A stretch of 63,081 bases of DNA, counting the filler, from Deltaproteobacteria bacterium (lineage in GTDB: Bacteria; JAUYMQ01): NCBI GenBank assembly GCA_030698575.1. It is 14 parts of 14 records of this genome, joined end to end, with 100 filler letters (N's around TTAATTAATTAA, not from the genome) between each part and the next. Parts side by side here need not be neighbours in the genome. Positions count along the whole stretch, not along the records: positions 7,839 to 18,011 come from JAUYMQ010000474.1; 13 more parts are not named here. The stretch is one strand, 5' to 3'. The notes beneath the pieces were generated by a model. That model ran no database searches. It was not told where the DNA came from and saw only the letters and a program-made list of their open reading frames with translations. This document shows, one piece after another, positions 1,444 to 20,997 of this stretch. The translations under genes were made by a program, and so were the position numbers. The first letter of the stretch is position 1. The number at the start of each line of letters is the position of its first letter.

Positions 1444-1453
1444 GTGGAGCTTT

Positions 1454-3000: not shown

Positions 3001-3008
3001 GGGGTTGC

Positions 3009-3037: not shown

Positions 3038-3051
3038 CCGGGCAGTACAGA

Positions 3052-3240: not shown

Positions 3241-3369
3241 CCTCTAGCACCATAGCCACGCTCTTCGCGGAAAGAGCCGGGGAAATTCGCCCTGCTCCGG
3301 ACCCGAAACGGCGCGGGGCATTTTCTTGCCCGCGCCCACCGGCTCCGCCGCGATCCATCCGGAGCCACG

Positions 3370-4233: not shown

Positions 4234-4333
4234 NNNNNNNNNNNNNNNNNNNNNNNNNNNNNNNNNNNNNNNNNNNNTTAATTAATTAANNNNNNNNNNN
4301 NNNNNNNNNNNNNNNNNNNNNNNNNNNNNNNNN
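4234..4333. other. Assembly gap with artificial linker (first of 13)
   Basis: N44-TTAATTAATTAA-N44. The same linker is at 7739-7838, 18012-18111, 21887-21986, 26571-26670, 30329-30428, 34486-34585, 37765-37864, 40727-40826, 46430-46529, 49299-49398, 53221-53320 and 58451-58550. Confidence 0.98.
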
Positions 4334-7095
4334 CCGCCCTCGCCGGTATTGCTCTTCCCGCCGATGCGGTTCATGGCGATCGCCAGGTTCTCGTGCGCTT
4401 CTTTACTGATCGACCCGAAAGACATGGCGCCGGTGCAGAACCGCTTCACGATTTCCGAGATCGGCTCCACCTCCTCCAGAGGCACGGGTTGCGCGCCCGG
4501 TTTGAATCGCAGGAGCCCCCTCAGCGTGCACAGCGTCTCGCTGCTCTCGTTGGCGATCCGGGAGAACTCCTTGAAGGTCGCGTAGCTCTCTTTCCGCACC
4601 GCGTGCTGCAGCATCGCCACGGATTCCGGATTGAACATGTGTTTCTCGCCGTCGCGTCGCCACTGGTAGATGCCGCCGGCGTCGAGATCGGATTCCGAAT
4701 CCACTGCACGGGCGATGTCGAATGCGCTGGCGTGTTTCATTGCGGCCTCCTCGGCCAGCACATCGAGCCCCGCCCCGTCCACGCGCGACGGCGTAGCGGT
4801 GAAGTACTTGGCGACCAGACTGCGGGAAAGCCCGATTGCTTCGAAGATCTGAGCGCCCTGATAACTCGCCACCGTCGAAATGCCCATCTTGGAGAAGACC
4901 TTCAGCAGGCCCTTCTTGATGGCCTTGATGTAATTCGTCGCCGCCTCTTCCCGCCCGATATTCCCCTCGAAGTAACTGCCGTCCCGGCGCAACTCCTCAA
5001 TCGTCTCGAAGGCGAGGTAGGGATTGATCGCGCCCGCGCCATAACCGACCAGAAGCGCGTAGTGCGCAACTTCACGTGCCTCGCCGGACTCGACGATGAT
5101 CCCCGCCTTCGACCTTAGCCCCTCGCGAATCAGGTGGTGATGCACGGCGCCCACGGCCAGAAGGCTCGGAACGGCCGCCAGATCCGGCCCCACCCCCCGG
5201 TCGCTCAGGATCAACAGGTTCTTGCCGGCGCGCACGGCCTCCGCCGCTTCGGCGCAGATCTTGTCGAGCGCGCTCTCCAGGCCGGCTGCACGGTCAGCCA
5301 CCTTGAACAAGACCGGAATGGTTACGGCCGAAAAGCCGGGGCTATCGATACCGCGGATGCGCTCGAGTTCGTCATTCGTGAGGATCGGGTGGTCGAGGGT
5401 GAGGAGCCTCGCGTGCCCGGGGGTCTCCTCGAGCAGGTTATGCTCGGTCCCGAGAGCGCTCCGCAGGGACATCACCAGTTCCTCGCGGATCGGGTCGATG
5501 GCCGGATTCGTCACCTGCGCGAAAAGCTGCTTGAAGTAGTCGTAGAGCATCCGCGGGCGATCGGAGAGCGCCGCGAGCGCGGTGTCGTCGCCCATGGATC
5601 CGATGGGCTCCTGCCCCTGGGCGGCCATGGGGGCAAGCAGGATTCGAAGATCCTCGCGCGTGTAGCCGAAGGCCACCTGGCGCTGGACGAGCGTTTCCGC
5701 GTTGTCCTCATGCGGCGACGTCACCGCCGGCAGATCCGCCAGCCGGAGGCGGTTCTCCGCCACCCACTGCCGGTAGGGGCGCCGGGTCGCCATCTCTTCC
5801 TTCAACTCGGCATCGTCCACGATGCAGCCGCGCTCGGTGTCGATCAGGAACATCCGGCCCGGTTGCAGTCTGCCCTTGTAGGCGACATCCTCGGGCTCGA
5901 TGGGGAGGACCCCGACCTCGGACGCCATCACCACGAAGTCGTCCTTCGTCACGACGTAGCGGGAAGGGCGCAGACCGTTCCGGTCGAGCACCGCGCCGAT
6001 GCGAACGCCGTCCGTGAAAGCGATCGAGGCGGGCCCGTCCCAGGGCTCCATGAGGAAGGAGTGGTACTCGTAGAAGCCGCGCTTGTCCTCGTCCATCGAC
6101 TCGTGCCCTTCCCAGGCCTCCGGGATGAGCATCATGATCGCGTGTTCGATGGAGCGCCCCGTGTGCATGAGGAACTCGAGCGCGTTGTCAAAGGTCGCCG
6201 AATCGCTTCCCCGCATTGTGACGATCGGAAAGATTTTCTGAAGGTCATCGCCGAAGAGATCGGAGCGGAGGATCGCCTCGCGGGCCCGCATCCAGTTCCG
6301 GTTGCCGCGCAGCGTGTTGATCTCGCCGTTGTGCCCGATGCAGCGGTAAGGGTGGGCCAGCTCCCAGGTCGGATGCGTGTTGGTGCTGTACCGCTGATGG
6401 ACGAGCGCCAGCGCGGTCACGAAGGTCGGGTCGGTCAGATCGGTGTAGAAGCCGCGGATCTGATGTGCGAGCAGCAAGCCCTTGTAGACGATCGTCCGGG
6501 AAGAGAAGCTCGGGATGCTGAAATGAGTGACGTTCTTCCGGTCAACCTCGAAAACCTTCTTCTCGATCAGGCGGCGAATAACGTAGAGCTTGCGCTCGAA
6601 GGCGGCCTGATCGGCCATCCCCGGACCCATGCCGACGAACAACTGCCGGACGATGGGCATGTGAATGCGCGCCAGCCGTCCGATCTTGCCGGGCTCGACG
6701 GGGACGTCCCGCCAGCCCAGTAACGCCTGCCCCTCGGCCTTGACGATATCCCGGGCAATGCGCTCCCGCCTTCGGCGCTTCCGCACATCGGGCGGGAGGA
6801 ACATCATCGCGACGCCGTACTCACCCGGCTCGGGGAGGCTGAATCCCAGCCGCTCACACTCCTTCTGAAAGAACGCATGGGGAATCTGAACGAGGATCCC
6901 CGCACCGTCGCCCGTCTCCGGATCACACCCCGTCGCACCGCGGTGCGTGAGGTTGACCAGAACCTGGAGCCCCTTCTGCACCATATTGTGGGACTTACGC
7001 CCGCGGATATCGACGACGAATCCGACGCCGCACGCGTCGTGCTCGAGCGACGGATCGTAGAGCCCCTGCTTCCTGAGCGGTTTGACGATTCGCAT
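4334..7095 (-). CDS. gltB: Glutamate synthase large subunit; 3' truncated
   Basis: EHDACGVG (N-terminal amidotransferase Cys), HQRYSTNT, HNGEINT, EPWDGPA, LDRNGLRP, FAQVTNP, TGAMSFGSIS and KSNTGEG. Confidence 0.97.
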
Positions 7096-7493
7096 CTGAC
7101 CATCCGTTGTCGTGGCGCCCTGCCTGCCGCCGCACCGGCGCACAGAAAACCCCTTCCGGATTCTCCCCTCGGGAGCCTGCCGAATTCATTTTACAATGCT
7201 GGGTCGGGATCGGGAGGTTCCTTTGTCTGTCCCGGGATCCGGGCGCCAGGAACTCCCCCGAACAGGACGAACGGTCCCGCCGACGCGGTCGGGGCACTCC
7301 CCTCGCGGGAGCGCCGCCTCGTTCTGAATCCTCGTGCGGGCTTCGAGAATATTACGTTACGTCGCGCCCTCCGGGCTGTCAAGCGCCGGAGGGACTTGCG
7401 TGTTGCCGGGCGAGCTACTCATTTCGCTATAATTTCAGGCAGTTGGCGTGATCACGTTGTGCACAGTATGCCGCATTGAGGCCCCCCCCGCGC

Positions 7494-7840: not shown

Positions 7841-10714
7841 ATGCATTCGACGCCTTCCCATCTGGGGACGGACCCCGCTGCCCTGATGGAGCTGGTCGAC
7901 GCGCTCTCAGTCCGAACCATCGATACCCGAGTCGAGACACCCTTCGCCGGGCCCGGTCACGTACTGGAGGCGCTGACGCAGCTCGAGTTCTACCGGCTTG
8001 GCGGCGCGGCACGGCGCGAAGGTCAGGCGCCGACAACCATCCCGGCGTCCGTTCTCGCCGGGCTGGCGACGGGCGAGGCTCCCCTCGGCTTCGTTGCGGC
8101 CGGCGACGGCCAGGAAGTTGTGCTCGCTGTGGGCAGCACACGCTCCCGTGCGGCCTCCCTCGCGGCCACCGTCCACGCGGCCATGGGCGGGCCGCCACCG
8201 TACAGCCTGTCTCTCGGGCACGCGCAGATAGACCTCCCCGTCTTCGGCTGTCTCACCGGTGTCCCCTCCACTGCGGTACCACCGGATTCAGCGCTCGACT
8301 TATTTCTCGACGGCCTTCGGGGCGTTCCGTTCCTCTATCTGGTCTACGCAACACCAGAGCCCGTGTCTGCGGTCCGCCGAGACTTCGACCGCATGCGCGA
8401 GGCCGTAAAGGAGGTTGATCGCACGCATCTTCTCCTGCCACAACAGTCGAACGTGGATCGGGGCGCGCTGCGCGCCCGCGAGTTACTCGATGCGTGGTTG
8501 CGCCGCTTGGAATCCGGCCTCAGCGGCGGCCTCTGGCGCGTTTCCGCCCTGCTCGGCGCTGATAGCCGTGATCACGTTCGGCATGGACTCGAGCTTTTGT
8601 CCGGTCAGCTCCGCAATGATCAAGAACACGCTTTGGCGCCCGTTCGGGGCTACCTGTGCGGCCACGACCGGAACGGCGCGGACGTGCATGCGAACTTGCT
8701 CTCACCAGCAGAGCTCGCGGCGCTCTGCCCTCTTCCTCACCGTGATCGGGTCGGCTTTGCGCTGCGTCAGGAGACCCGATTCGACGTAGACCACCGGAGC
8801 CCAGAGGGCGCGCGGATCGGACAGATCGTCGATGCCGAGGTGCCCACCGGCCGCTGGTACGCCGTCGACGACGCGGCGCTTTGCCGCCACACCCTTGTTG
8901 CGGGGCACACCGGCTCCGGCAAGAGCACGACCGTGAAGGGCCTCCTGCTTGACCTGGCCGGCAGGGGCCTACCGTTCCTCGTGCTCGAGCCGGCGAAGGC
9001 CGAGTACCGAGCGCTCGCGACAAGCATGCCCGGACTCTGCGTCTTCCCGGTGGGTGCGCCGCCGCGTGCCGGACAGATGCCCTTCCTCCTCAACCCGTTC
9101 GCTTTCCCTGTGGGCTTCCCGCTGCACACGCACATCGACTTCTTTACGCAGGCGTTCGTCGCCTCATTCGGACTCCCTCCGCCGACACCGTACTTGCTCC
9201 AAGGTGCCATCTACCGCACTTACGAGGCTCGGGGGTGGGACCTGGTCACCGGCAGGCATCCCAACGGTCACGACCAGATGTCCTTCCCCACGCTATCGGA
9301 TCTCCTTGAGCAGATCGATCCCGTCATGGACGAAGCCGACTACCACGGCGAGATCTCCGCGAACCTGCGCGCCGCTCTTCGCACCCGCATCGGAAATTTG
9401 TGCCTCGGACCGAAGGGTCTCGCGCTCAACACCCGCCAGGGGCTACCGGACGAGATGTTATTTGGAGGACCGGTCGTCCTCGAACTCAGACACCTCGGCT
9501 CTGATGAGGAGAAGGCCCTCCTGATGGGGCTGGTCATCACGCGCCTCTACGAGCTACGCGAAACCAGCCGACCTGAAACAAGTGACCGGCTCCGGCACCT
9601 CCTCGTCGTCGAGGAGGCACACCGCCTTCTCAAGCGCACAGCGGAGCGCTCCTCGGAGGAAAGCAACATGGCGCACCAGGCCATCCAGACCTTTGCCAAC
9701 CTCCTCGCGGAGCTCAGGGCATACGGGCAGGGCGTGGTCCTCGTCGAGCAGCTTCCCTCAAAACTTGAACCGGATATGGTTAAGCACGCCGGCACCAAGG
9801 TCATTCACCGCCTGACGCCCCGCGACGACCGAGACGTGGTCGGAGACGCCATGGTCCTCACGGAGGCGCAGAAGCGAGCGCTCGCTGCCCTGCCCACTGG
9901 TGAGGCGGTCGTATACGGGGAAGGAATGGATGGCGCCGTGCGCGTCAGGGTACCGAAGCGCGACGAGCGCGGCCCGACGACCGCGGATCTCGCCGCTCGC
10001 CCGTGGCGCCGGATCGAGGAAGCGCAGGCCGATCGGCTACGTGCTGTGCTCGAACGATCGCAACTCGCCGGCTTGCTCGCGCTGAAGGAAATCCGAGACG
10101 CAGCGGAGCGAAGCTGGTTCGCCGCGTTTGCCGGGTTGTCGGTCGAAGAGCACGTTGCCTATCTGAAGGCTGAAACGGACCGCCTCCTCGATCCGGAGAC
10201 CAAGGCAAGGGACACTGCCGTCGCGTTCGCCCTCGAGGACGCGCTCCTGCGCCGTGCGCTCTTTCACGGTTGGAGCGAAGCCGCATTCGAGGCCGTAAGG
10301 AGCACCCTGCGCAGCAATGGGCCAGCGGGGGCTGCGCGTTGTCCGCAGGCGCTCGCCAGCCATCGCCGAGTCTGCTCCCGCAGGTGTTCCTTCTGCTACG
10401 AGGGGGCGCAGCTTGCGGCGGATACGCTGTTCCGCGAGGACGTGACGGCCGTGGCGGAGATGGACAGCGATTTGTGGCAGGACGCGCTGTTGCAGGCGGT
10501 CGCCGACTGTGCACGCCGGCGCCTCGGCTGGGAAAAGTCCCTGCCCGATGTGATCATCGCGTGTGGGATCGGGCAGGTAATGACGCGTGCCGGTGTCTCG
10601 CGCCGCGCGGTGGATAAGGTTCTCAACCACGTGCTTGTTGAGCGGGATGACGCCCCCAGTCCTGGCACGCCGCTTGCAGTCTCGCCGGTTACTCGGGGGG
10701 CACGGACCGAATGA
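7841..10714 (+). CDS. HerA/FtsK-superfamily (DUF87-type) P-loop ATPase, 957 aa; may be 5' truncated at the contig edge
   Basis: RHTLVAGHTGSGKS (Walker A), LVLEPAKAEY, LLVVEEAHRL (Walker B), ELRAYGQGVVLVEQLPSKL (Arg finger/Q motif). C-terminal extension has CSRRCSFC. Confidence 0.88.
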   Translation: MHSTPSHLGTDPAALMELVDALSVRTIDTRVETPFAGPGHVLEALTQLEFYRLGGAARREGQAPTTIPASVLAGLATGEAPLGFVAAGDGQEVVLAVGSTRSRAASLAATVHAAMGGPPPYSLSLGHAQIDLPVFGCLTGVPSTAVPPDSALDLFLDGLRGVPFLYLVYATPEPVSAVRRDFDRMREAVKEVDRTHLLLPQQSNVDRGALRARELLDAWLRRLESGLSGGLWRVSALLGADSRDHVRHGLELLSGQLRNDQEHALAPVRGYLCGHDRNGADVHANLLSPAELAALCPLPHRDRVGFALRQETRFDVDHRSPEGARIGQIVDAEVPTGRWYAVDDAALCRHTLVAGHTGSGKSTTVKGLLLDLAGRGLPFLVLEPAKAEYRALATSMPGLCVFPVGAPPRAGQMPFLLNPFAFPVGFPLHTHIDFFTQAFVASFGLPPPTPYLLQGAIYRTYEARGWDLVTGRHPNGHDQMSFPTLSDLLEQIDPVMDEADYHGEISANLRAALRTRIGNLCLGPKGLALNTRQGLPDEMLFGGPVVLELRHLGSDEEKALLMGLVITRLYELRETSRPETSDRLRHLLVVEEAHRLLKRTAERSSEESNMAHQAIQTFANLLAELRAYGQGVVLVEQLPSKLEPDMVKHAGTKVIHRLTPRDDRDVVGDAMVLTEAQKRALAALPTGEAVVYGEGMDGAVRVRVPKRDERGPTTADLAARPWRRIEEAQADRLRAVLERSQLAGLLALKEIRDAAERSWFAAFAGLSVEEHVAYLKAETDRLLDPETKARDTAVAFALEDALLRRALFHGWSEAAFEAVRSTLRSNGPAGAARCPQALASHRRVCSRRCSFCYEGAQLAADTLFREDVTAVAEMDSDLWQDALLQAVADCARRRLGWEKSLPDVIIACGIGQVMTRAGVSRRAVDKVLNHVLVERDDAPSPGTPLAVSPVTRGARTE
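10662..10678 (+). promoter_or_regulatory. Sigma54 (-24/-12) promoter
   Basis: CTGGCACG-CCGC-TTGCA matches the YTGGCACG-N4-TTGCW consensus exactly. It sits about 33 bp upstream of the ATG at 10711, inside the 3' end of the ATPase gene. Confidence 0.6.
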
Positions 10715-10803
10715 GCAGCGAGGATCTCGATTCCGTCATCGAACACGAGACCTATGACATGATGAAAAATCGCGTGCAGGGAAATCGGAGGCGCACCGAA
10801 TGA
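10711..10803 (+). CDS. 30-aa micro-ORF (MSSEDLDSVIEHETYDMMKNRVQGNRRRTE)
   Basis: ATGA overlap with the ATPase stop and with the next ORF start; G-rich RBS upstream. Confidence 0.45.
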   Translation: MSSEDLDSVIEHETYDMMKNRVQGNRRRTE

Positions 10804-11117
10804 CGAGGTCCACAAAGGCGCTTGAGCCGTTCGCCGTCGAGCCAGTATCGGTCGAACCAAGCGGCCCCGAGCGACGTCCCGCGGCCGCCATCGAGACTCC
10901 CAAGCTCAACGAAGGGACCCGCATGGGGCCACTCACAATCATAAGGACGGACGCTAGTGTTGGACAACGGCTGCGGGCCGAACCATGGGCACTATATGTT
11001 GTGTCTTTCCACAAAATGGATCATATGCGATGTCTGTTTCACGGCGTCTGCAATCCAGTCGTCCTATTTCCTAACACACCGCCTGCCGTGCAGGAAACCA
11101 ATGAGCAAACGCATTAG
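10800..11117 (+). CDS. Hypothetical protein, 105 aa
   Basis: GGAGG RBS and ATGA coupling to the upstream micro-ORF; no recognised motif. Confidence 0.4.
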   Translation: MTRSTKALEPFAVEPVSVEPSGPERRPAAAIETPKLNEGTRMGPLTIIRTDASVGQRLRAEPWALYVVSFHKMDHMRCLFHGVCNPVVLFPNTPPAVQETNEQTH

Positions 11118-11178
11118 TGTGGGTCCTTCGGATTATCGATCCCCTGACCGCCAGCTCCGAAACGAGGAGGTAGAATAA
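11101..11178 (+). CDS. 25-aa micro-ORF (MSKRISVGPSDYRSPDRQLRNEEVE)
   Basis: AGGA RBS; TAATG overlap with the next gene; N-terminus resembles that of the 11712 ORF. Confidence 0.4.
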   Translation: MSKRISVGPSDYRSPDRQLRNEEVE

Positions 11179-11507
11179 TGAGCGACCGGACAGACGAAAC
11201 CCCCGACGGAAAGGAATGGCGGCGCAATTATGTCCGCACCGAGGTGGACCGCCTTCTCCGCGAGCATCGCGAACACCCTGAGCGCGGGTCGCGCCCTGAG
11301 GATCGGGTCGCGCGGCTCGAGCGGATCGTAACTCGCGACGCGGCACGCCATCTGCCGGACTTCAATCCCGAGCGAACTCGCGAGCTGGAAGATTTCGAGA
11401 TCCGTTCGAACCCAGAAGGCTACCTGGCGCGGCACGCCGGCGAGGGGCTGGACCCCGCGACCGAGCGCGAGGTGCGTAGGGCTCTGGCGAAGCGACGGAG
11501 CGGGTAG
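11178..11507 (+). CDS. Hypothetical charged helical protein, 109 aa
   Basis: Strong GAGGAGG RBS, clean ORF, coupled to its neighbours. Confidence 0.7.
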   Translation: MSDRTDETPDGKEWRRNYVRTEVDRLLREHREHPERGSRPEDRVARLERIVTRDAARHLPDFNPERTRELEDFEIRSNPEGYLARHAGEGLDPATEREVRRALAKRRSG

Positions 11508-11711
11508 TGCCCGGAGTTGACACAATGTCCCTGGAGGACGAAAGTAGTCTGTTCCCAGAATTGACGATGCCGGCACCGCATCCGTTAATCGCGAACAGAT
11601 GTGTCCATCGTGCTCAACAGGACGTCATGCTATACCGCGTGAGTTCGACAGAGGATGCTAGCGGGCTTTGCGATCACCCAGCCAAGCGCCGTAGGGCCTT
11701 GGAGGAACCCC

Positions 11712-12797
11712 ATGAGTAAAGTATCGATCGGGCCGCCTGGAATTAAAGTAAGCCCCGAGGCCGCAGTCAACATCAAGGTTGGCCAGGAACTGATGACGGC
11801 CAGGGAGGAATGCGAGGGTGAGAGCGACCAGCATGTTGATCGCGATCCCTTGGAACCTCCTCAACTCGAAGACAAGGGAGACAGCACGGAGTTTGTCGAA
11901 GATGAGCCGCCAGGAAGCAGCTTCGAGCTGCCTTGGAAGGGAAAGTTGCCGCTAATGCACCAGATTCCCAAGCGCCTGCGTCCCCCCTTGCGCTACCGGA
12001 TCGACGGCGACCTGACCGTCCATCCCCTCTACCGAGAGCGATCAAAGAGCGAGGATCTCGAGCACGCCGTTGCGGAGGCGATCGCGGTGCACCTCTGGCG
12101 GACAGGCGTCCGCCTCGTGCAAATAGGAGACTGGTGCCGCATCCCTTCTATAGGCAGCGACGACGAACTCGCCGCCTTGATCCCGGGGACACACAGAAGA
12201 CAGTTGACCGCAAGCCGGATCCACGCCGTAGGCAACGTGCTCAAGGACTTCGCGATCGAGTTGCCAAGTCGCGATGTTGTAACGCCGCAGGCCCTCATCG
12301 ATATCGCCAAACGCCCCCAGGTCCGTTACCAGATCGACGGGAGCTTCGTGGTTCACAAGAAGCGTCGAAGGAACGTAAAGCGCGAGGCCCTTGAACAAGC
12401 CGTCGCCCAAGCCATCGCGCGGCATCTCCAGAACACGGGGTATACCCCGAACGACCCTGGAGACTGGCGTCAGATCCCGGGAATCGGGGCAGATTTCGAT
12501 CTCGCGGTGTTGGTGCCCGAGAGCCACAGGGCCGCGCTCGTCCAGGAATTCGCTGACGTGGTGAAGGCATTCGCCGTCGAATTGCCGAACGGCGATAAAG
12601 TGACCCCTGGGGATCTCATCGAACCAAACAGCATAATAAAGCGCACCACTCGGGGCGCTGCACTCAGGCTTGCGGCACAGCGCCCTGAGGCAATGCCGAG
12701 CGGCGAAACCTGGTCCTCCGCCGACTGGGACGCCTTTGAAGATACGCAGCGGAGGAAGGAGCCCAAGGACGGGAGGCAGGGAGGACTCGAGCCGTGA
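11712..12797 (+). CDS. Hypothetical protein with acidic N-terminal region and a tandemly duplicated ~105-aa domain; possible divergent sigma54-like factor
   Basis: GGAGG RBS before ATG 11712. Repeat units RYRIDG..LEHAVAEAIA.HL..GDW..IP.IG...FAIELP (~11988-12302) and RYQIDG..LEQAVAQAIA.HL..GDW..IP.IG...FAVELP (~12321-12623). Its stop overlaps the GTG of the RNA polymerase gene. Confidence 0.75.
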   Translation: MSKVSIGPPGIKVSPEAAVNIKVGQELMTAREECEGESDQHVDRDPLEPPQLEDKGDSTEFVEDEPPGSSFELPWKGKLPLMHQIPKRLRPPLRYRIDGDLTVHPLYRERSKSEDLEHAVAEAIAVHLWRTGVRLVQIGDWCRIPSIGSDDELAALIPGTHRRQLTASRIHAVGNVLKDFAIELPSRDVVTPQALIDIAKRPQVRYQIDGSFVVHKKRRRNVKREALEQAVAQAIARHLQNTGYTPNDPGDWRQIPGIGADFDLAVLVPESHRAALVQEFADVVKAFAVELPNGDKVTPGDLIEPNSIIKRTTRGAALRLAAQRPEAMPSGETWSSADWDAFEDTQRRKEPKDGRQGGLEP

Positions 12798-15700
12798 TTA
12801 ACGCCGAACTTTACCGGAAGTGGGCCGAGCAACGAGGGCTCGCAGGCCTTGAGTTCCCGGTGAAAAGACGCGGCAAGAAAGTGTTGGCCCGGCTTCCGCT
12901 TCCGGATGACCGCGGAATCTTCTGGCGCGGGAGCATACCCTGCCTGCTGCCGTATCTCCGCGCATACTGGAAGGCCGATTCGAGTGACAGTGACGGCGTG
13001 CCCGAGATCCCATCGTGGCAACCAGATAGCTGGATCAAGCTTACAAGTTCGACCGCCGCCGAGTTGCGACGAATCGCGGACCGGAGCGAAACATGGCCTC
13101 TCGCGTGGCAGTCGAGGCAGCTGAAGAACATCCACCAAGCGCGCAAGCTCGCCCAATCCATGGACGGTGGCCTCGGATACCTGCGATTCTTGCGCGCCGA
13201 CCAGCTTCTCGAATGCATCCTGGGCATGCTCGGGTGCTCTCCCGGGGACGAAACCTTCCTCGCATCGGTCCATAAATACCTCGGGGCCTGGCTCGTGCCG
13301 CTTGATGAAGCCATTCGGGATCGCATCGAAATCCTGGATCGGCGTGTCGAGACGGTACGTATGTATGTTCGAAAGGGGGTACTTAAGTGGACCCGCAGGC
13401 CCCGTTGGTTCCCCGACGAGCTACGCGTCTCGATCATCGATGGTATCGATCCAGTTCATACGCCTGAGAACGCGCGGGCCGGGCTTACCCGTTACCTATG
13501 CGAGGGATGGGGGATTGACGACCATGGCCGGCTCGTGTCTGGCGAAATGGCGACTGGTTGGGGCCCGTCTTCGGCTCTCATCCCACACCGCCACCACGAT
13601 GCACCGCGTCGCCTCATGCTCGGCGCGTCGCTCCAGTCCCGCGGTGTGCCGCTCATCGATCCCGATCGACCCAGCGAACCTGACAAGCTGGGGGGGTGGC
13701 TTCCCGAGGGAAGAAACCTGCGGGCCTCCTTCAGGATGCTCGGCGGCTGGACGCATGAAGACGCTGTCGTGCTGTCGGAGTCCGCGGCTAACAAGCTCTG
13801 CTCTCGGACTGTGCGGCAGATCCGCGTGCTCGTGCCGTCAGTTGCGTCGCGTGTGGAGATCGCGGAGCCTTCGGACGCGCCAATCCCCATCAAGCACCAG
13901 CAGGCCCTCGCACGGGCGTACATCGATGCGTACGCTCTCGGGCTGCGCCGTCACGATGCGAAGGATCTCGGCGCCGATGACGGGTGGATCGAGGTCGCTC
14001 TTCCAGCAGCCTCCGCCCCCTTCGACGGCCAACTCTGCAAACTGACACGACAAGCGCTTCGTACGCCAAAATGGCGCGAGATGATAACGTTCGAGATCGA
14101 ACGCAGTGCCCCAGTGCGCGTCGGCGACAAACTGTCTACGCGACACGGCATCAAGGGTGTCGTCAGCCGCATACTTCCGGATGGGGAGATGCCGCCTGCG
14201 GATGAGCACTCCGCCGAGATCGTACTCTCCCCGCTGAGTATCGTCCGCCGCGGCGCCATGGGGCAGCTTCGAGAAGCCGTGTCGCCTGGTGCCACGGACC
14301 TCCCGCGTGCAGGGACGATCTTCGTCATGCGGCAGCCTCAAGACGCAGACTTGCCCGAGCGCTGCCGCGTCCGGGGTCCCGAGCGAATGGGGAACGAGCA
14401 CCTCCACCACGGCCAGCGATACGGTGAGATGGAGTTTTGGGGGCTGATGGCGCACGGCGCCGCGGCGATCGCGAAGGAGCTGCTCTCGGTCGAGCGCTCG
14501 ACTGCGCCATGGTTGGCATGGGAGGAGAGGATCAAGCCCGGTGGACATCACAAGCTTGCGACGAGAGCGCTGAACCGCTTCCTCGCGGTCGCCGGCGTCC
14601 AGATTCAAGGCGGCTGCTTCGTAGCAAATAGGGAACCTCCCGGTGTCTTCAAGATCGAGCCGAAGTGGAAATTGCGTGGCGACCCTCGCGAGAAGCTGGA
14701 GGACGCGAAATACTTCTATGAGAATGGCGGGCTTGGGGAGCTACCCCTCGGAAGGAGGGTGAGGGCTGCCCTCGACGAGGACTGGCCGATTCCACCCGAC
14801 TTTGAAGAGAGGAGCGTGACGCAAGCCCTGGGCGGGAAGGTCAGGATTGTCCTCGAGAAGCGAATGAACGGTGGAGACGAGCGCTTGATCCCTCGCTTTA
14901 TCGAGCTCGACCAAATCTACATTCTGCCGCCGTGGCTCCGCCCCTCGAGTCCGTCGGAACGTCACGAACTCACGCAAGCGTACTGGCGGCTCATGACTAA
15001 ACTCGCTTGGCCATGGTCGAAACAAGACGAGATCGATCAAGCGGTTGGCAAGTGCATCCGGCTGATGTTCCAGGACAGGCAGGGAGCCGGGGGGTTCCTG
15101 CGTCGAGAGATCCTCGGCAGAAGACTCACACGTTCGGCACGAGCGGTCATCGTGCCCCGGCCAGACCTGCGCATCGACCAGGTGGCAATCCCGCCCTGGA
15201 TGGCGGATCAACTGTTCGAGGGACTCCCTGACACCAACCGCAGCCTCGTACTCGTGAACCGTAACCCGACCCTCCACCGCCAAGGATTACTCGCTCTGCG
15301 CCCTGTTGTAGACCCTTCGAATGAGCCCCATGTGTTCGGACTATCGTTAGGAATCTTGCGTGCGCTCAACGCCGACTTCGACGGTGACCAGGCCAGCGTT
15401 GTCGCGCTAGAAACCGAGGCGGCGCTCGCTGAAGCGGAGCGCTTGCTTCCTGGCGCGGCCGAACTCCGAAGCGACCCGTTCCGATCGGGACAGCCTGCGT
15501 TCCCCTTCGCAGGTGAACTGGCCGACCCCTCCAACGAGAAAGCCCTGGCCCGCAATGCGTCATTGGCACAAGAGGACTGGTGCGAGAAAAATCGTGAACT
15601 ACAGAACGCGCGACTGCAAAGCCTCGGCGACGGCTGGCAACTGCCCTTGATTAAAGATGCAATTGCGAAGAACATCGAGCTATGGCAAGGAATGAACGAC

Positions 15701-16171
15701 GACGACTGGCGCACGTTCGCGGCGCAGGAGATGGAGAAGGTCTTCCGCGGAGTCCGGCGCAAAGGCCAGCTTGGCGGCGTCCTCCGACGCGAGGTATATC
15801 GACGGTCCTACACCGACGACGACTCCTTCGGGCGCTCGGTCCAGGCTCTTCAGGCTGTCACCGAGCGGATGACGCAAACGGCTCTCTCGGTGAAGTCCGG
15901 GGCAGGTCCTACTACCTTCAACGCTCGGCGGTACTTCGACGATCCGGCGGGCGCCAAGGCGATGCTCGCCATCCTCTCCGAAAGAATGGAGGAAAGCCTC
16001 GACGCAGACCTACTCGCGGACTCCCTCGGCGCCCCCAATGACCCGAATGGGTTGCTCGCCTGGATGGCAAAGCCCAACCTTCACACATTACTCGAGCTTG
16101 CTGTTGGGAACCTCCACGACCCGGCTGCCCAGCCCGAAGCGGATCCTCGGATGGCATGGTTCCTGGACTGA
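12794..16171 (+). CDS. Single-chain, miniaturised two-barrel RNA polymerase (RpoB-like core fused to RpoC-like core), 1125 aa
   Basis: Beta motifs in order: IDPVHTPENARAGL, SALIPHRHHDAPRRLMLGASLQ, GRNL..GWTHEDAVVLSES, GDKLSTRHGIKGVVS, SPLSIVRRGAMGQ, GQRYGEMEFWGL. Beta' motifs follow: ILPPWLRP, ILGRRLTRSARAVIVP, LVNRNPTLHRQG, NADFDGDQ (15368-15391), and a trigger-loop-like QAVTERMTQTALSVK. Confidence 0.92.
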   Translation: MINAELYRKWAEQRGLAGLEFPVKRRGKKVLARLPLPDDRGIFWRGSIPCLLPYLRAYWKADSSDSDGVPEIPSWQPDSWIKLTSSTAAELRRIADRSETWPLAWQSRQLKNIHQARKLAQSMDGGLGYLRFLRADQLLECILGMLGCSPGDETFLASVHKYLGAWLVPLDEAIRDRIEILDRRVETVRMYVRKGVLKWTRRPRWFPDELRVSIIDGIDPVHTPENARAGLTRYLCEGWGIDDHGRLVSGEMATGWGPSSALIPHRHHDAPRRLMLGASLQSRGVPLIDPDRPSEPDKLGGWLPEGRNLRASFRMLGGWTHEDAVVLSESAANKLCSRTVRQIRVLVPSVASRVEIAEPSDAPIPIKHQQALARAYIDAYALGLRRHDAKDLGADDGWIEVALPAASAPFDGQLCKLTRQALRTPKWREMITFEIERSAPVRVGDKLSTRHGIKGVVSRILPDGEMPPADEHSAEIVLSPLSIVRRGAMGQLREAVSPGATDLPRAGTIFVMRQPQDADLPERCRVRGPERMGNEHLHHGQRYGEMEFWGLMAHGAAAIAKELLSVERSTAPWLAWEERIKPGGHHKLATRALNRFLAVAGVQIQGGCFVANREPPGVFKIEPKWKLRGDPREKLEDAKYFYENGGLGELPLGRRVRAALDEDWPIPPDFEERSVTQALGGKVRIVLEKRMNGGDERLIPRFIELDQIYILPPWLRPSSPSERHELTQAYWRLMTKLAWPWSKQDEIDQAVGKCIRLMFQDRQGAGGFLRREILGRRLTRSARAVIVPRPDLRIDQVAIPPWMADQLFEGLPDTNRSLVLVNRNPTLHRQGLLALRPVVDPSNEPHVFGLSLGILRALNADFDGDQASVVALETEAALAEAERLLPGAAELRSDPFRSGQPAFPFAGELADPSNEKALARNASLAQEDWCEKNRELQNARLQSLGDGWQLPLIKDAIAKNIELWQGMNDDDWRTFAAQEMEKVFRGVRRKGQLGGVLRREVYRRSYTDDDSFGRSVQALQAVTERMTQTALSVKSGAGPTTFNARRYFDDPAGAKAMLAILSERMEESLDADLLADSLGAPNDPNGLLAWMAKPNLHTLLELAVGNLHDPAAQPEADPRMAWFLD

Positions 16172-16533
16172 TCTGGCAGGCGACACGGCGCAAGGCCGAT
16201 TGGAGCCGTCATATTCGGTGTCTGCGCGAGACTGGCTCCACCTTTCGACCCGCTTCTCGAGCACTCTCATGTGGATGGCGAATTGATACTCAGGCTGATA
16301 TCGGGCCTCATATAGCTGTGCGTGGTGAATTCTGAATCACGCTGCCATCGGGAGCTTGTGCGGCCTTCGGCAATGGGCTTCGAGCGGCTAGGTTTCAGAA
16401 GCCGGGCGATCGTGGTCAGCGCGGTGCCCCAGGACTGTAAACAGGGACTTCATGGTGCGGAAGCCTTCGGTAATCGCGATGGTGAATCTGTCACAGGTCC
16501 TCACACAGGCCGGCACACCGATCCTAGATCCAC

Positions 16534-17532
16534 ATGGTTTTTCGAATGAATGGTACACATTCAAGTCGCCGCCGAAACCCTTCGGGGGCTAGCCAGTCAA
16601 GGTCCTCACGCCTCCGGGAGGCCCCGGCCGGTCATGCGTACCGGCTGGTACTCGCAATCTGGGACCGCATGCGCCGGAATGCTCGCGTCCGACCGGAATG
16701 GCGACGCGTAGTGGAGAGGGCCGTTCACGCAATGGAAGCCGCCTCGGGATTAGCGGCCGAGAAACTCCTCACAGCCCCTGATCGTCCGTGCGCAGCCCTT
16801 GCGGACCAATTCGACTTGGGAGCGATCCTCGAGTTTTCGGGTGCCGTCCCTATCTGGGAATCGGCAGTACGTACGGGGCGGCGGCCAGCGCAGTCGATCC
16901 CACAAAACCAGAAGCTCTTCCATGGCACCACCGATGCGGCGACCCACTACTTCAACGGCATCCGCAAACTCGCCCTCCGCAATGCCCCGCAACTCTTCGA
17001 GGCGCTCAGTGCCCGTCGGGTACAGTTTGGACGAGTTCTTGACCTTGGAGCGGGAACCGGCGACTACGCTGCCGCGATGATCGATCGTGGCATTGCGAGG
17101 GATGTTCTTTGTGTAGACCAACAGTACGTTATCGACCTGCCGGCCAGGCAGCGACGGAGCAGTCTACGCTGGCAGGCAGCAGATCTTCGGCGACTGTCTC
17201 TACCGAGCGAGGAGCCGTTCGATGCGGTATGGATCAGCAACGTGCTTCATCACTACTCCGCGCGGACTGACGCGGAGATCCTCCGCCGTTGCGCGCGGAA
17301 TCTAGCATCGGACGGCAGCTTGCTCATCCACGAGTACCTCCTTGACGGGGCAGGCACGCAAGCTCTCGCAGCCGGGGTGCTTGGGCTGCACTTTGCTCTC
17401 ACAACAGGTGGTGGCCGCTGTTATTCCCTCCAAGAATTGCTGGATCTCTGCGCCCGAGCCACCCCGTTCAATTCGATTGAGTTCTCACTGACCTTACCGA
17501 TTTCGACCGTGGTTATCCTCCGTCGGGGCTGA
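16534..17532 (+). CDS. Class I SAM-dependent methyltransferase (O-methyltransferase-like); start uncertain
   Basis: RVLDLGAGTG, VLCVD, FDAVWISNVLHHYS..IL..L..DGSLLIHEY and GGRCYS. Confidence 0.8.
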   Translation: MVFRMNGTHSSRRRNPSGASQSRSSRLREAPAGHAYRLVLAIWDRMRRNARVRPEWRRVVERAVHAMEAASGLAAEKLLTAPDRPCAALADQFDLGAILEFSGAVPIWESAVRTGRRPAQSIPQNQKLFHGTTDAATHYFNGIRKLALRNAPQLFEALSARRVQFGRVLDLGAGTGDYAAAMIDRGIARDVLCVDQQYVIDLPARQRRSSLRWQAADLRRLSLPSEEPFDAVWISNVLHHYSARTDAEILRRCARNLASDGSLLIHEYLLDGAGTQALAAGVLGLHFALTTGGGRCYSLQELLDLCARATPFNSIEFSLTLPISTVVILRRG

Positions 17533-17546
17533 ACTACCGACGTCCG

Positions 17547-18011
17547 CTACTTCCTCCACTTCCTCGCTCGCCTCCCTCTTGCTCGCAGATGCTGCAACGC
17601 CTTCGCCGCCCCGTCCTCTGAGTCGAATTTAACGATTGCAAAGGGTTGCTTACCGTCAGGCTGAATGATGGAGATCTTTGTTGCCCTCAGCGGAAGCCAC
17701 CTCTGGATCGTCTTCTTGTCTACGTTCGCCGCACCACCGAGATCGAGAAACAGTTCCCCTGGTCGTTTGACGGTTGCCGGTCCTCCCGCGCCGGAACCCT
17801 CAACCATGACGCGCTGGGCCGCTACGACCTCCCCGCAAGCATCCACGAAAGTCGAACCCGTCGATTCGAGGACCGCTCCCGCGACCGTAGCGGCGCATCG
17901 CTGCCGAAGCGGCGACTGCACCCTGGGCTGTTGCGCTGCAATTAAGCCGGATGCAGCGCGAATGATTTCACCTCGCAGAGTCCAGCGCGCAAGTTGTAGG
18001 CTTTGCTCCAG
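17547..18011 (-). CDS. C-terminal part of a protein ending in an RRM-like domain; 5' truncated
   Basis: Frame is open to the contig end (LEQSLQLARW...). ELFLDLGG (RNP2-like) and PFAIVKFDSEDGAAKALQHL (RNP1-like). Confidence 0.55.
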   Translation of the reverse strand: MEQSLQLARWTLRGEIIRAASGLIAAQQPRVQSPLRQRCAATVAGAVLESTGSTFVDACGEVVAAQRVMVEGSGAGGPATVKRPGELFLDLGGAANVDKKTIQRWLPLRATKISIIQPDGKQPFAIVKFDSEDGAAKALQHLRARGRRARKWRK

Positions 18012-18307: not shown

Positions 18308-18896
18308 CGGTCTTCCCCCAGGTCAATTCGTAGAAACGTTCGAGGAACTTCTTCTCGGCGGCCCGCCAGTCCCAGCACTCGATCTTCACCTTCGGCACCT
18401 CGGTCACGCCCCAGTCACCCCAAGGCAGGTGCGACGGGTTCATAACCGCCGCCTTCTCTGCGAAGCAGATGGCGATGTCCATCTTCTTGACCGACGAATC
18501 GAGCTCGTACGGGAGCCCGAAGCGGCGAGCGAACGCGCGCCAGTTCAGGTCCTCGAGCGCCCGGTAGTCAGGGAGGTCTTCCTTCGCCGGCCGGTTCACG
18601 TCGTTCAGGACGTACTCCGGCCCGTCGTGCATCAGGCCTTGGAACGCAAACGGCCGTGGCACCAGGTATGAGATGTGGTAGCTGTGCTCCGCGACGCTGT
18701 AGTGGTCGCGGCAGGCGCCCGTGTACCGGCACAGCATCGCGAGGTGGTGCGCTACATCCTCGATGAAGATGTCCTCGGGCCGCGGGTCGGAGGGCCAGTA
18801 CGGGCGGCCGCTGACGGTCTGCATCCAGCGGCCTTTGCGCGCGGGCGTTCTTGGCGCGTACTCCTCGTACTTCGACCAAGGAGAGGTGTCGATCAT
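18300..18896 (-). CDS. HD-domain nucleotidase (YfbR/YfdR-like)
   Basis: IEDVAHHLAMLCRYTG, HYSVAEHS and LMHDGPEYVLNDV; start coupled by ATGA. Confidence 0.85.
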   Translation of the reverse strand: MIDTSPWSKYEEYAPRTPARKGRWMQTVSGRPYWPSDPRPEDIFIEDVAHHLAMLCRYTGACRDHYSVAEHSYHISYLVPRPFAFQGLMHDGPEYVLNDVNRPAKEDLPDYRALEDLNWRAFARRFGLPYELDSSVKKMDIAICFAEKAAVMNPSHLPWGDWGVTEVPKVKIECWDWRAAEKKFLERFYELTWGKTDG

Positions 18897-19540
18897 GCGG
18901 ATTCCTCTATCTCCGTCTGGAGGTTGGCGAGCGCACGCCACGCCGCCGCCGTGCTGTGGCGTACGCGCCTCGCATACTCCCCCTCGATCCACGTCCCGCG
19001 ATCTAGCAGGTGCCGCGCGCAGCAGTCCGCGTGGTCGTTGCTCTTGCCCTTCGACCAGTGCATGGGTTCGCCGGGGTTGTGCTTCTCGTTGGCGAGGAAG
19101 GAGAGCTCCGCCACCGCGAGCAACGCGTCGGGGAAGTAGTCCATGCAGCCGCGCGCCAAGGGCATCTCTTTGCGCCGCCGGGACTCGCTGACCGACTGAT
19201 CGTCGGCATCCCGCGCCCGGGCGAATCCGGGCGGCAAATGGATCTTCGCGACGCCGGTATCGTGGTTGCCGTCGTGGTTGCCGGGCTCGTACGCGATCGT
19301 TGTTCTACCCCCGGCCGGCCACAGCGGCGGTACACCCGTCGACTGATCATCGGCATCCCACACCGGGCTGCCGCCCGGGATCGGGCCGAAGTCGTACGCG
19401 ACGATGTCACCGCTACTCTCGCCGTGGGTCCAGTCAAAATCACCCACCCTGGACTCTATCTCGCCGCCGTCCCGGAGGCGGACCCGCACCTTTTTGTCCA
19501 AGTTCGTTGTCGGCTGCCCGATACCGTTCCAGCTGATCAT
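18893..19540 (-). CDS. DUF5664-like (dATP/dGTP diphosphohydrolase N-terminal-type) phage protein
   Basis: PDALLAVAELS..ANEKHN....HW.KG....HADCCARHL.......RH...AAWRALA in the C-terminal half. Confidence 0.7.
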   Translation of the reverse strand: MISWNGIGQPTTNLDKKVRVRLRDGGEIESRVGDFDWTHGESSGDIVAYDFGPIPGGSPVWDADDQSTGVPPLWPAGGRTTIAYEPGNHDGNHDTGVAKIHLPPGFARARDADDQSVSESRRRKEMPLARGCMDYFPDALLAVAELSFLANEKHNPGEPMHWSKGKSNDHADCCARHLLDRGTWIEGEYARRVRHSTAAAWRALANLQTEIEESA

Positions 19541-20997
19541 CGCCTTCTCCTGTTCATCGCCGCCAGTAAAATGTCCTGCACGCTTCTCTTGCTCACGCGC
19601 CGCTCCATGACGTCTTCATCGAGGGTGTCGCGCGCGAGAATGTGGTTGATGCGGACGGCGCGGTCGAAGCCGGCCTGGATCTGGCGCACGGGGCCGATGC
19701 GCTCGTTGATCTGGTCATAGCTATCGAGCGACCACCCGTGACCAAAGTGCGTGATCGTGTAGCAGACCTGCTGCATGCCATCGACGCCATGTCCGAGCGA
19801 GTCCGGGTGGCAGATGCCGTAGTCGATGCCGCCCCGTTTAAACGCGAGCTCGTTCGCCTGCTCGCTCAGGTCGATCGCCTTCGGGAGAAGTTTCTTGATC
19901 CGCGCGAGGTCGCTCCGGAATGAGTAGACGATCATCATCGGGCTCCCGTCATGCTCGGAGATCACCGACTCAAGGGCCTCGATCTTCGCGTCATGCACGG
20001 CCTTCCACTTCTTCGCGCGCGGGTCGCGATCATCAGCGGCCTCTGGGTCGATGTAGACGGCGCCATTCGCGAGCTGCAGGCACTTCTGGGACTTCGCGGC
20101 CGCCCCGAAGGCTTCGACGGTCGCCCCCTCGAGCTGGATGAAGAGATCTTTTTCCATCTCCCGATAGAGCTTGCGTGCCGCGGGCGGGAGCTCCACATAG
20201 ACGTCGTTCACGATCGGCTCCCGAAGATCGAACCAGTCTTTCGGGTCAAGGGTCAAACAGACGTCCTTCAGGCGCGCATGGATCTCGGCCTCGGCCCCCT
20301 GCAGGGGCTCGACCCCATAGCCGTCGTACTTCGGCCGGAACCAGCGCCTAACGAAGCCCTCGTACGTACGCCCGAGGCGCTCGCCACGATCGAGGAACCA
20401 GGCCTGGGCCCACAGGTCGGTGAGTCCATTCGGCGCCGGCCGGCCAGTGAGCTCGATGAAGCGGCTCGTGCGCTCGTGGGCTACCTTTGCGAGGGCGCGG
20501 GCCCGCGTGCCGCCTGCGCCCTGGAGGAACACCTTGCCGCTCTTCGGATGCGTCCGGTAGCTGCCGCGGTACCCCTGCAGCTTCCGGGACTCGTCAGCGA
20601 TAATCGTCCTGAAGGGCCACCGATCGGTCCCGACATACTCGATTAACCACTCCAAATTTTCGTAGTTAATCGAGTAAAGCGGTGCCTCGACCTTTAGCGC
20701 CCGGCGGCGCGCGTCCTCGTCCCCGATCACCGCGGAGGTGTGGATGTGGGCGAGGTGGTCCCACTTCTGGGGTTCCCTCGTCCAGACATCGCGGGCGACG
20801 CGCAGCGGCCCGATCGCGAGCGCCGGCCAGACCTCCTCCGTGAGCTCGAGCTGCGAGAGCGCGGTCAGCGCCATCACGCCCTTACCCATCCCCATGCCGG
20901 CCCAGAGGGCGCAGCGACGGTGCTCCGATATGTGGTCGGTGCCCAGCGGCTGGTACTCACGCGGGCTGTAGGGGCGGGGGGTCAACGCGTCATCCAA
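19537..20997 (-). CDS. Phage SNF2-type DEAD/H helicase
   Basis: PREYQ, LWAGMGMGKG, PLRVARDVW, IIADES, LTGRPAPNGLTDLW, LQLANGA and QINERIG. Confidence 0.9.
   Translation of the reverse strand: MDDALTPRPYSPREYQPLGTDHISEHRRCALWAGMGMGKGVMALTALSQLELTEEVWPALAIGPLRVARDVWTREPQKWDHLAHIHTSAVIGDEDARRRALKVEAPLYSINYENLEWLIEYVGTDRWPFRTIIADESRKLQGYRGSYRTHPKSGKVFLQGAGGTRARALAKVAHERTSRFIELTGRPAPNGLTDLWAQAWFLDRGERLGRTYEGFVRRWFRPKYDGYGVEPLQGAEAEIHARLKDVCLTLDPKDWFDLREPIVNDVYVELPPAARKLYREMEKDLFIQLEGATVEAFGAAAKSQKCLQLANGAVYIDPEAADDRDPRAKKWKAVHDAKIEALESVISEHDGSPMMIVYSFRSDLARIKKLLPKAIDLSEQANELAFKRGGIDYGICHPDSLGHGVDGMQQVCYTITHFGHGWSLDSYDQINERIGPVRQIQAGFDRAVRINHILARDTLDEDVMERRVSKRSVQDILLAAMNRRRR

Follow-up and report, generated by a model that had tools for sequence, protein, structure and literature searches.

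The window analysed here, a stretch of 63,081 nucleotides (nt) from a deltaproteobacterial genome (GenBank assembly GCA_030698575.1), encodes a miniature RNA polymerase, P0001, in which a beta-like and a beta'-like half are fused into a single chain with an intact catalytic core. The gene is directly preceded by a gene for a conserved partner protein. P0001 is probably an active accessory single-chain DNA-dependent polymerase, with the partner as its own promoter-specificity factor and an AAA+ activator in most relatives. The original prediction for this locus, made from the sequence alone, had proposed a stripped-down single-chain beta-beta' polymerase with its catalytic core intact, and this is supported by the motifs, the Pfam matches and the invariant residues described below.

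The polymerase gene occupies positions 12794–16171 of the window on the plus strand, on which all the features of the cassette lie, and encodes 1125 amino acids (aa) from a GTG start with no internal stop. The beta-like half comprises residues 1–585 (12794–14548). It contains the beta "ED" acidic pair, E322 and D323, at the position of the second-metal ligand (13757–13762; both invariant in 36 of 36 aligned family members), a beta-flap-like domain that is the predicted docking site of the partner (residues 336–438, 13799–14107), the double-psi barrel motif GDKLSTRHGIKG with the catalytic lysines K446 and K454 (residues 444–455, 14123–14158) and GQRYGEME of the beta C-terminal conserved region (residues 540–547, 14411–14434). 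The beta'-like half, residues 586–1125 (14549–16168), has a clamp-like core and a helical C-terminal region. Its motifs are LPPWLRP (residues 711–717, 14924–14944), the switch-2-like LGRRLTRSARAVIV (residues 774–787, 15113–15154), NRNPTLH with R823 and P825 (residues 822–828, 15257–15277) and NADFDGD with D861, D863 and D865 (residues 859–865, 15368–15388). The segment from LPPWLRP to LGRRLTRSARAVIV (14924–15154) corresponds, by profile alignment to beta', to the lid/clamp-helix region up to switch 2; "lid", "clamp helices" and "switch 2" are the names that we presume to apply to these segments of P0001. The beta' double-psi barrel extends from NRNPTLH to NADFDGD (15257–15388), as supported by Pfam Rpb1_2 and by an alignment to beta' residues 681–759. 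All the hallmarks of RpoB and RpoC that had been read in this one uninterrupted frame were thus recovered, each in its place.

The likeness is well beyond what chance could produce. In Pfam, P0001 matches RNA_pol_Rpb2_6 (5.3e-14) and RNA_pol_Rpb1_2 (2e-18) above the cut-offs, and RNA_pol_Rpb2_7 with 27 bits, under the cut-off of 32.1; of the families proposed for a profile check, the former two were thereby confirmed. A phmmer search of PDB sequences gave 3.1e-16 for RpoB and about 1e-10 for beta'/gamma chains, and in its alignments GDKLSTRHGIKG pairs with GDKMAGRHGNKG and GQRYGEME with GQRFGEME of solved beta chains. The NCBIfam models for rpoB (72–80 bits) and rpoC (53 bits) remain far below their cut-offs of about 800–960. 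Taken together with the models of full-length fusions, they produce local matches only, with 36–87 bits against cut-offs of 800–5400. A canonical core enzyme with separate full-length beta and beta' was rejected on these grounds, the product being a single 1125-aa chain far below the NCBIfam cut-offs. A profile of nine family members aligns to residues 513–654 of T. thermophilus beta' with a domain i-Evalue of 9.6e-08. Residues 586–720 contain one cysteine only, and P0001 therefore has no beta' zinc site, in keeping with the claimed absence of the zinc domain. The last 230 residues are helical and family-specific in sequence.

The AlphaFold2 model of P0001, built from a 36-row alignment, has a pLDDT of 87.1 and a pTM of 0.88, and its best Foldseek matches are RpoB chains (1e-20). 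Both double-psi barrels are present in the model and face one active site. About 460–470 residues of each subunit have a counterpart in P0001, and each half appears in the model as a whole-length but pared-down copy of its subunit. A flap-like domain stands at the normal position, between the ED pair and the GDK motif, and a clamp-like core is kept. The original prediction had seen correctly that the chain is pared down, but its statement that most peripheral modules are lacking was too strong in view of these two elements. The switch-2-like segment can be aligned to beta'. The funnel region is spanned by the structural alignment but has no match in sequence. Switch 2 and funnel elements are described as the mark of DNA-dependent two-barrel enzymes in PMC2919709. 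The solved single-chain two-barrel enzymes are far more distant from P0001 (QDE-1, 10.5; RDR2, 10.5; P74 gp62, 8.5; P23-45 gp96, 8.0; crAss phi14:2, 6.6).

The fusion is shared by a family of proteins. A word-indexed protein search with P0001 returned 58 matches at E ≤ 1e-3, 49 of which (the window's own record included) carry both Pfam domains in one chain of 666–1491 aa, with identities of 36–64%. The rest are 2 fragments and 7 other polymerases, mostly canonical beta or beta' chains. The fused matches are mostly annotated as hypothetical proteins, and the named ones come from metagenome-assembled genomes of Acidobacteriota, Nitrospiraceae and Planctomycetota. An exhaustive search of 1.84 billion representatives gave 105 clusters below 1e-30 and 985 below 1e-10, and the close subfamily amounts to about 85 representative clusters. 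A single-protein query found no match in genome and metagenome contigs, so that an alignment was used as the query for the contig scans instead. The close relatives, designated subfamily A, are represented by 14 loci (the window, L001–L010 and L168–L170) and are hosted by Acidobacteriota, Planctomycetota and Nitrospirota.

In the alignment of 36 family members, D323, K446, K454, R823, P825, D861, D863 and D865 show no variation. The same eight positions are listed as invariant in all two-barrel polymerases by Ruprich-Robert and Thuriaux (PMC2919709), and the assignment of E322/D323 to the Mg-binding Asp of beta was made through that list. Invariant in the same alignment are G444, K446, T449, G452, K454 and G455 of GDKLSTRHGIKG, R542, G544 and E547 of GQRYGEME, P713, W714 and R716, the whole run from L774 through V785, and F862 and G864 besides the three aspartates of NADFDGD. 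Between the loci L004 and L006, the ratio of nonsynonymous to synonymous substitution rates (dN/dS) is 0.185 for the polymerase (dS 0.53); the partner has 0.135 and the AAA+ gene 0.128. The polymerase is therefore under purifying selection, not relaxed.

The partner gene is located at 11712–12797 (+). Its likely start is the ATG at 11712, preceded by GGAGGA at 11701–11706, within an open reading frame (ORF) that runs from 11655 (P0189, 380 aa). The stop codon overlaps the polymerase start by 4 nt (GTGA, 12794–12797), and the two genes are translationally coupled. A homologue of the partner lies directly upstream of the polymerase in all 11 subfamily-A loci with upstream DNA, namely the window, L001–L007, L009, L010 and L168; the contigs of L008, L169 and L170 start inside the polymerase gene. 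The original prediction had placed the polymerase outside any rplL-rpoB-rpsL context, and a position outside an rpoB-rpoC context is supported, but its account of the locus missed the conserved partner gene as well as the linkage to sigma and AAA+ genes considered below.

The partner usually has 250–280 aa. An acidic N-terminal stretch is followed by a core of some 110 aa and by a basic tail in which A-L-R is invariant. The number of core repeats varies, with one copy in most relatives, two in the window's P0189 and three in P0190, whose contig has the same length (14,699 nt) as that of the related polymerase P0006. In P0189, repeat 1 (residues 110–215, 11982–12299; pLDDT 81–93) was recognised from an internal duplication in tblastn and from alignments, repeat 2 (residues 222–330, 12318–12644; pLDDT 75–94) from alignments, and the basic tail (12645–12794), with a T-R-x-A-A-L-R motif in which L337 and R338 are invariant, likewise from an alignment. 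Searches of Pfam, PADLOC and PHROGs with the partner were empty, as was a search of PDB sequences with E allowed up to 10, and the feature search of the ESM Atlas gave no usable match. A profile search, in which 8000 candidates were scored, yielded at least six homologous proteins.

Predictions of the complex of partner and polymerase scored 0.72, 0.71 and 0.72, against 0.01 for the best of three controls. By a rough calibration, 58 of 80 solved complexes and 2 of 110 mismatched pairs attain this mark. At least 73% of contacts are common to the runs, and the pLDDT of the partner is at least 78. The predicted interface on the polymerase is formed by residues 348–428 of the flap-like domain and holds all three family-invariant flap residues (P348, D378 and A381). 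On the partner it is formed by repeat 1, with most of the contacts, and by the A-L-R tail (residues 333–341 and 365–369), and it includes the invariant P110, W160, K197, A200, L337 and R338; core repeat 2 has no predicted contact with the polymerase fragment. The flap-like segment and the partner occur together in subfamily A, and both are missing from subfamily B, a sister group described below. Judging from the predicted complexes, it is quite likely that the partner is a flap-binding subunit of the mini enzyme.

The model of the partner alone has a pLDDT of 71 overall and of 75–94 in the repeats. Its best structural matches are sigma-54 chains, which are also the sole clear match: residues 106–377 superpose on residues 269–477 of a sigma-54 chain, with the basic tail on the sigma-54 C-terminal end. 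In a Foldseek search of the PDB the best match was SigN with an E of 0.11, and the structures nearest to the ESM Atlas's own model of the partner are three Sigma54_DBD/CBD clusters, with TM values of 0.43, 0.36 and 0.41 (all below 0.5). In comparison with sigma-54 (RpoN), the partner has, by its model, a fold that may correspond to that of the C-terminal DNA-binding region, which we take to comprise the ELH-HTH and the RpoN domain, and it resembles sigma-54 in having an acidic stretch before the core. It differs in its one to three core repeats and in the absence of detectable sequence similarity, and no core-binding domain or region I was identified in it. These structural likenesses incline us slightly towards regarding the partner as a sigma-54-like DNA-binding factor.

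A second sigma-54-related link is found in the neighbourhood of the relatives. In 10 of the 14 subfamily-A loci (L002, L004–L009 and L168–L170, from Acidobacteriota and Planctomycetota) a Sigma54_activat-type AAA+ protein of 450–780 aa is encoded at most 10 kb from the polymerase, in varying orientation; L003 and L010 have too little DNA to judge its presence. The Pfam Sigma54_activat values are 3.5e-53 for L002 and 2.4e-36 for L007. With bacterial enhancer-binding proteins this ATPase of the relatives shares the Sigma54_activat domain, but its GAFTGA loop is degenerate, and Pfam listed no HTH_8 domain in the two proteins scanned. The loci L004 and L006 (polymerase at 9464–13297 and 9464–13330, AAA+ gene at 15889–17724 and 15916–17751, respectively) are unequal in divergence, with a dS of 0.53–0.59 and a protein identity of 82.5–86% for polymerase and partner, and a dS of 0.11 and an identity of 97% for the AAA+ gene 2.6 kb away. 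Either the cassette evolves faster than the AAA+ gene or it was exchanged. In five subfamily-A loci the polymerase or the AAA+ gene is adjoined by a protein of 800–900 aa with no Pfam match (L001, 19269–21815; L007, 13113–15542; L002, 13140–15860; L004, 13368–15989; L006, 13391–15883). These proteins form two clusters, with 44% identity inside one and 27% inside the other, and may be further components.

Two sister subfamilies have related neighbours. Subfamily C (L171 and L172) comprises fused polymerases of 1300–1331 aa, 31–32% identical to P0001, in a tight same-strand operon in which a Sigma54_activat AAA+ gene (Pfam 4.5e-27 in L171 and 2.5e-27 in L172) is followed by a gene for a 336–384 aa protein of no known family and then by the polymerase. 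Subfamily B, the largest sister, has fused ORFs of about 900–1200 aa and is hosted by Chloroflexota, Poribacteria, Planctomycetota, Latescibacterota and Armatimonadota. A gene for a sigma factor of the extracytoplasmic function (ECF) type, of about 200 aa, lies directly upstream on the same strand in 62 of its 73 loci; among the 11 misses, 6 have less than 130 nt of upstream DNA, in 3 an ECF gene is located at another place in the locus, and 2 lack it altogether. All 24 aligned upstream genes match Pfam Sigma70_r2 and Sigma70_r4_2, and 20 of the 24 match Sigma70_ECF. A sigma-type or sigma-54-system gene is thus linked to each of three kinds of miniature fused polymerase. The subfamily-A partner did not match any of 67 distant loci in tblastn. 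Kinship of the partner with ECF sigma factors or with the middle protein of subfamily C was rejected (hhalign probability 0.2% each), as was kinship of that middle protein with sigma-54 (0.2%).

Sites resembling sigma-54 promoters were also considered. Perfect matches to the consensus TGGCAC-N5-TTGC occur in the window at 10663–10677 (+) and 53588–53602 (−), against 0.06 expected, and none of 100 shuffles reaches two. The former is situated inside the 3' end of a HerA-like ORF; it precedes a small ORF at 10800 by about 120 nt and the partner gene by about 1 kb. It may have to do with expression, driven by the host, of the small ORFs in front of the cassette. The 1.2 kb upstream of the partner were scanned for matches of at least 8/10 with GG and GC required: the window has one perfect and one 8/10 match, L005 one 8/10 match and L009 two, and 7 of the 9 relatives scanned have none. 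No perfect match was found within this distance in any of the nine, and the idea that a sigma-54 promoter is conserved with the cassette was rejected. In the interval 10400–17700, sites resembling sigma-70 promoters or terminators were no commoner than in shuffles.

According to the reading that we favour, polymerase and partner would be made together from the coupled genes, and the partner would dock on the flap-like domain and provide promoter recognition in the manner of the sigma-54 C-terminal region. It is because of the predicted flap docking and the apparently sigma-54-like fold that the partner is read as the enzyme's own promoter-specificity factor. The AAA+ protein would drive promoter opening with ATP where its gene is present, which is not the case in the window, and the mini enzyme would transcribe from promoters of its own, without recourse to the host polymerase. 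The sister subfamilies would follow the same logic, B with the ECF sigma gene upstream and C with its operon of AAA+ protein, unknown protein and polymerase. A broader proposal, which we consider possible but short of probable, is a second self-contained transcription system made of a mini polymerase and its own initiation factor. Its branches would use either an ECF sigma or a flap-docking sigma-54-like factor with a private AAA+ activator, and the system would serve its own promoters and be immune to inhibitors or retargeting of the host enzyme.

Several observations weigh against the favoured reading. In the profile alignment, sequence homology to beta' stops about 25 residues past NADFDGD, and neither the bridge helix nor the trigger loop was identified by sequence in P0001. 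The complex was predicted with a cut polymerase (residues 200–900), a cut partner (95–380) and custom alignments. The sigma-54 likeness of the partner has no echo in sequence: hhalign against the RpoN proteins of five host genomes gave a probability of 0.2%, none of 14 partner members matches a Pfam Sigma54 family (DBD, CBD or AID) at E up to 10, PF04552 misses the partner in 5 genomes, and the Foldseek search of the PDB was empty at E ≤ 0.001. The AAA+ gene was not found by tblastn in the 63 kb of the window, and it is absent from L001 within about 9–10 kb. The GAFTGA loop is degenerate in all seven aligned AAA+ proteins (GTFTGA, GAFTDA, GGFSGA, GSFTTA, GAFDGA and, twice, KIATGV), and the AAA+ protein could simply be a host-type regulator, since the hosts own a sigma-54. 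The ECF-linked subfamily B has no flap-like segment, so docking on the flap cannot hold generally. The order of a sigma gene and then another gene is also the classic layout of a sigma factor and its anti-sigma factor. Finally, no conserved promoter motif was found.

Some of these points are shared by two alternatives. The polymerase may have no promoter-driven role and serve instead for RNA-templated synthesis, as QDE-1 and RDR2 do, for priming, or as a signal or decoy in conflict and defence, with the partner and the AAA+ protein as sensor or regulator. The conflict-type neighbours (a NACHT protein in L001, a vWA protein in L002 and the HerA-like protein in the window), the lack of trigger-loop and bridge-helix homology detectable by sequence and the sporadic, rare occurrence of the family are consistent with such a role. 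We nevertheless find it unlikely: lid, clamp-helix and switch-2-like segments are retained together with the clamp-like core, no PADLOC model matches the polymerase or the partner, and the regular association of subfamily B with an ECF sigma gene points to promoter-dependent initiation. Alternatively, the sigma-type neighbours might not belong to the mini enzyme as subunits. They might serve the host polymerase in the control of the cassette, or the mini enzyme might sequester the factor, and the polymerase itself would start factor-free. An ECF sigma gene and that of its regulator in one operon are a textbook arrangement, all five host genomes examined have one canonical rpoN, which the AAA+ protein could serve, the perfect sigma-54 site precedes the window's partner, and the ECF-linked enzymes are devoid of the flap-like segment. 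Against this, the subfamily-A partner is not recognisable as a host-type sigma, and it is predicted to sit on the mini enzyme's own flap-like domain, with controls at or below 0.01 and with flap and partner occurring together. The sigma-54 consensus is missing in most relatives, and the AAA+ proteins combine degenerate GAFTGA loops with the lack of an HTH_8-type domain in Pfam. Independence of the neighbours from the mini enzyme therefore seems rather improbable to us, and the reading of P0001 as a polymerase with its own promoter-specificity factor is preferred.

The cassette might also belong to a phage, a plasmid or another mobile element and transcribe the genes of that element, as the YonO polymerase does for SPbeta; the original prediction had called the enzyme element-encoded. 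Island-like genes do occur near it in the window: a HerA/FtsK-like ATPase of 957 aa (7841–10714, +; PADLOC HerA 4.5e-22, mad8 8.3e-19) and, at 16534–17532 (+) and 18893–20997 (−), a SAM methyltransferase (mad2 2.9e-07), a dGTP_diPhyd_N ORF and a weak SNF2-like ORF. In addition, the GC content is about 0.61–0.63 at the cassette and 0.67–0.71 in some flanks, the flanking genes differ among distant lineages, a NACHT NTPase lies near the polymerase in L001, and the unequal dS of polymerase and AAA+ gene in L004 and L006 could reflect cassette exchange. The wider comparison speaks for a chromosomal gene. In tblastn, 50,697 phage records contained no full-length relative (19 partial matches, none covering 80% of the query), nor did 72,556 plasmid records (42 partial matches, mostly canonical rpoB/rpoC), and the best 80 loci of IMG/VR match part of the protein only, with identities of 21–41%. 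The relatives are found on chromosomal contigs of up to 4,849,319 bases, and the upstream genes are syntenic among L003, L004 and L006 from related Acidobacteria. The window has no tRNA gene, and no integrase was found among the ORFs scanned. The HerA-like ATPase was rejected as a conserved component, being present in none of the 13 other subfamily-A loci; a methyltransferase homologue occurs in L009 only, 8 kb away, and no other island gene is kept with the cassette. The island-like genes may be a separate defence locus. The label "element-encoded" is thus not supported, and it is quite unlikely that P0001 is the private polymerase of a mobile element. An assembly chimera or a decaying remnant of rpoB-rpoC could be suspected in a low-coverage metagenome (about 5x word depth) with an apparently truncated gltB nearby, but both are excluded. 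The same fusion recurs in independent assemblies, the invariance of the catalytic residues, the dN/dS and the pTM of a confident model speak against both, and a Logan contig of 1242 nt, from a run that may be the window's own source sample, crosses the beta/beta' junction (13664–14905) with 0 differences and no joints reported.

The surroundings of the cassette in the window also include ordinary chromosomal genes, with cytochromes, a polyprenyl synthase, a binding protein and gltB. The glutamate synthase large-subunit ORF (953 aa, 4282–7143, −) stops after 105 of 369 Glu_synthase positions, directly next to the end, at 4281, of a gene for a periplasmic binding protein. This reflects either a truncation of gltB or an assembly or rearrangement break. 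Another ORF, at 26692–27429 (+), has LAGLIDADG_3 (1e-06) at its start and a C-terminal PhoH part (1.4e-38), and looks like an intein-containing or split phoH. All five host genomes examined have a full-length rpoB beside the mini enzyme.

Generally, all transcription in a bacterial cell is ascribed to a single multisubunit RNA polymerase, which is retargeted by sigma factors, and the known single-chain relatives are phage or silencing enzymes too diverged to reveal much about a possible simplification of the cellular enzyme. The mini family clearly resembles beta and beta' over their whole length with about 40% of their mass, is chromosomal and under purifying selection, and is tied to sigma-type factors. 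If the favoured reading is true, P0001 would be a natural minimal cellular RNA polymerase that shows which modules are dispensable. In addition, a non-canonical polymerase would for the first time be seen to work with sigma-54-like and ECF-type factors, a setting in which co-evolution between flap and factor is directly testable, and synthetic biology might make use of the module as a compact orthogonal transcription unit. The role may be transcription during stress, dormancy or defence that escapes inhibitors of the host enzyme. Full-text searches of the literature yielded no account of the mini family, nor of any fused polymerase with a linked sigma gene, although an earlier mention is possible. 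In the main text of an ECF classification paper (PMC7826278), six terms for polymerase subunits have 0 occurrences; its supplements may list genomic contexts.

In order to elucidate the position of the family, a tree of the two catalytic blocks was calculated (113 rows and 146 columns, 3 of 116 rows having been dropped for more than 30% gaps). Subfamily A was recovered with an SH-aLRT of 99, the support for its sister being 26, and its median path is 1.91 to subfamily B and 1.87 to canonical bacterial enzymes. The original prediction had derived the enzyme from bacterial rpoBC; the likeness stands, but the tree does not resolve the sister group of subfamily A, and therefore no claim on origin is made. 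Subfamily B, unlike most canonical enzymes, also aligns to residues 119–335 of P0001 in tblastn, and this alignment is the only hint at a common origin of the mini subfamilies.

With RpoB and RpoC, P0001 shares the two double-psi barrels, the catalytic residues and the order of the conserved blocks. They are two chains of about 2500–2900 aa in total; P0001 is one chain of 1125 aa without the Cys cluster of the beta' zinc site, and its family coexists with a normal rpoB. The fusions of Helicobacter and Wolbachia (NF007172 and NF011417) likewise have beta before beta' in one polypeptide. However, they are full-length, with models of 2890 and 2839 positions whose cut-offs, 5372 and 4632 bits, compare with 86.6 and 70.5 bits for P0001, and a fusion of this type is the cell's only RNA polymerase. 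Apparent full-length rpoB-rpoC fusions, unrelated to the mini family, were also seen in uncultured bacteria (L028, 6803–15073, 2759 aa; L023, 2414 aa), and many single ORFs of about 1400–2950 aa with both catalytic blocks occur on viral contigs of IMG/VR (L079–L144); the latter are fused polymerases of much greater length, distinct from the mini family, and contribute 34 rows to the tree.

Among single-chain enzymes, QDE-1, RDR2, crAss-like phi14:2, P23-45 gp96 and P74 gp62 have both barrels in one chain in the same order as P0001, and the structural alignments run end to end. The polymerase of yeast cytoplasmic linear plasmids, as depicted in PMC2919709 and PMC6211774, is likewise a compact fusion in the order Rpb2::Rpb1 outside the normal polymerase genes; the likeness is one of description, the enzyme being eukaryotic and cytoplasmic, with no sigma-type tie seen in those sources. 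YonO of the Bacillus prophage SPbeta is presented in PMC5467207 as a single chain of about 100 kDa with two barrels and as an active DNA-dependent RNA polymerase. According to the same paper and PMC2919709, only the barrels of YonO are homologous to multisubunit enzymes, and YonO-like proteins are known from Firmicutes, from cyanobacteria and from the phages of both. Trigger-loop homology is detectable neither in YonO (PMC5467207) nor in P0001. No SPbeta-type record was among the 19 phage matches of P0001 (E ≤ 1e-3) in a collection whose inclusion of SPbeta is unchecked. Unlike YonO, P0001 keeps a whole-length likeness to beta and beta', and its family is chromosomal and found in other phyla, with a conserved partner gene. 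The P0001 family thus consists of two-barrel RNA polymerases that are far closer to the cellular subunits than YonO.

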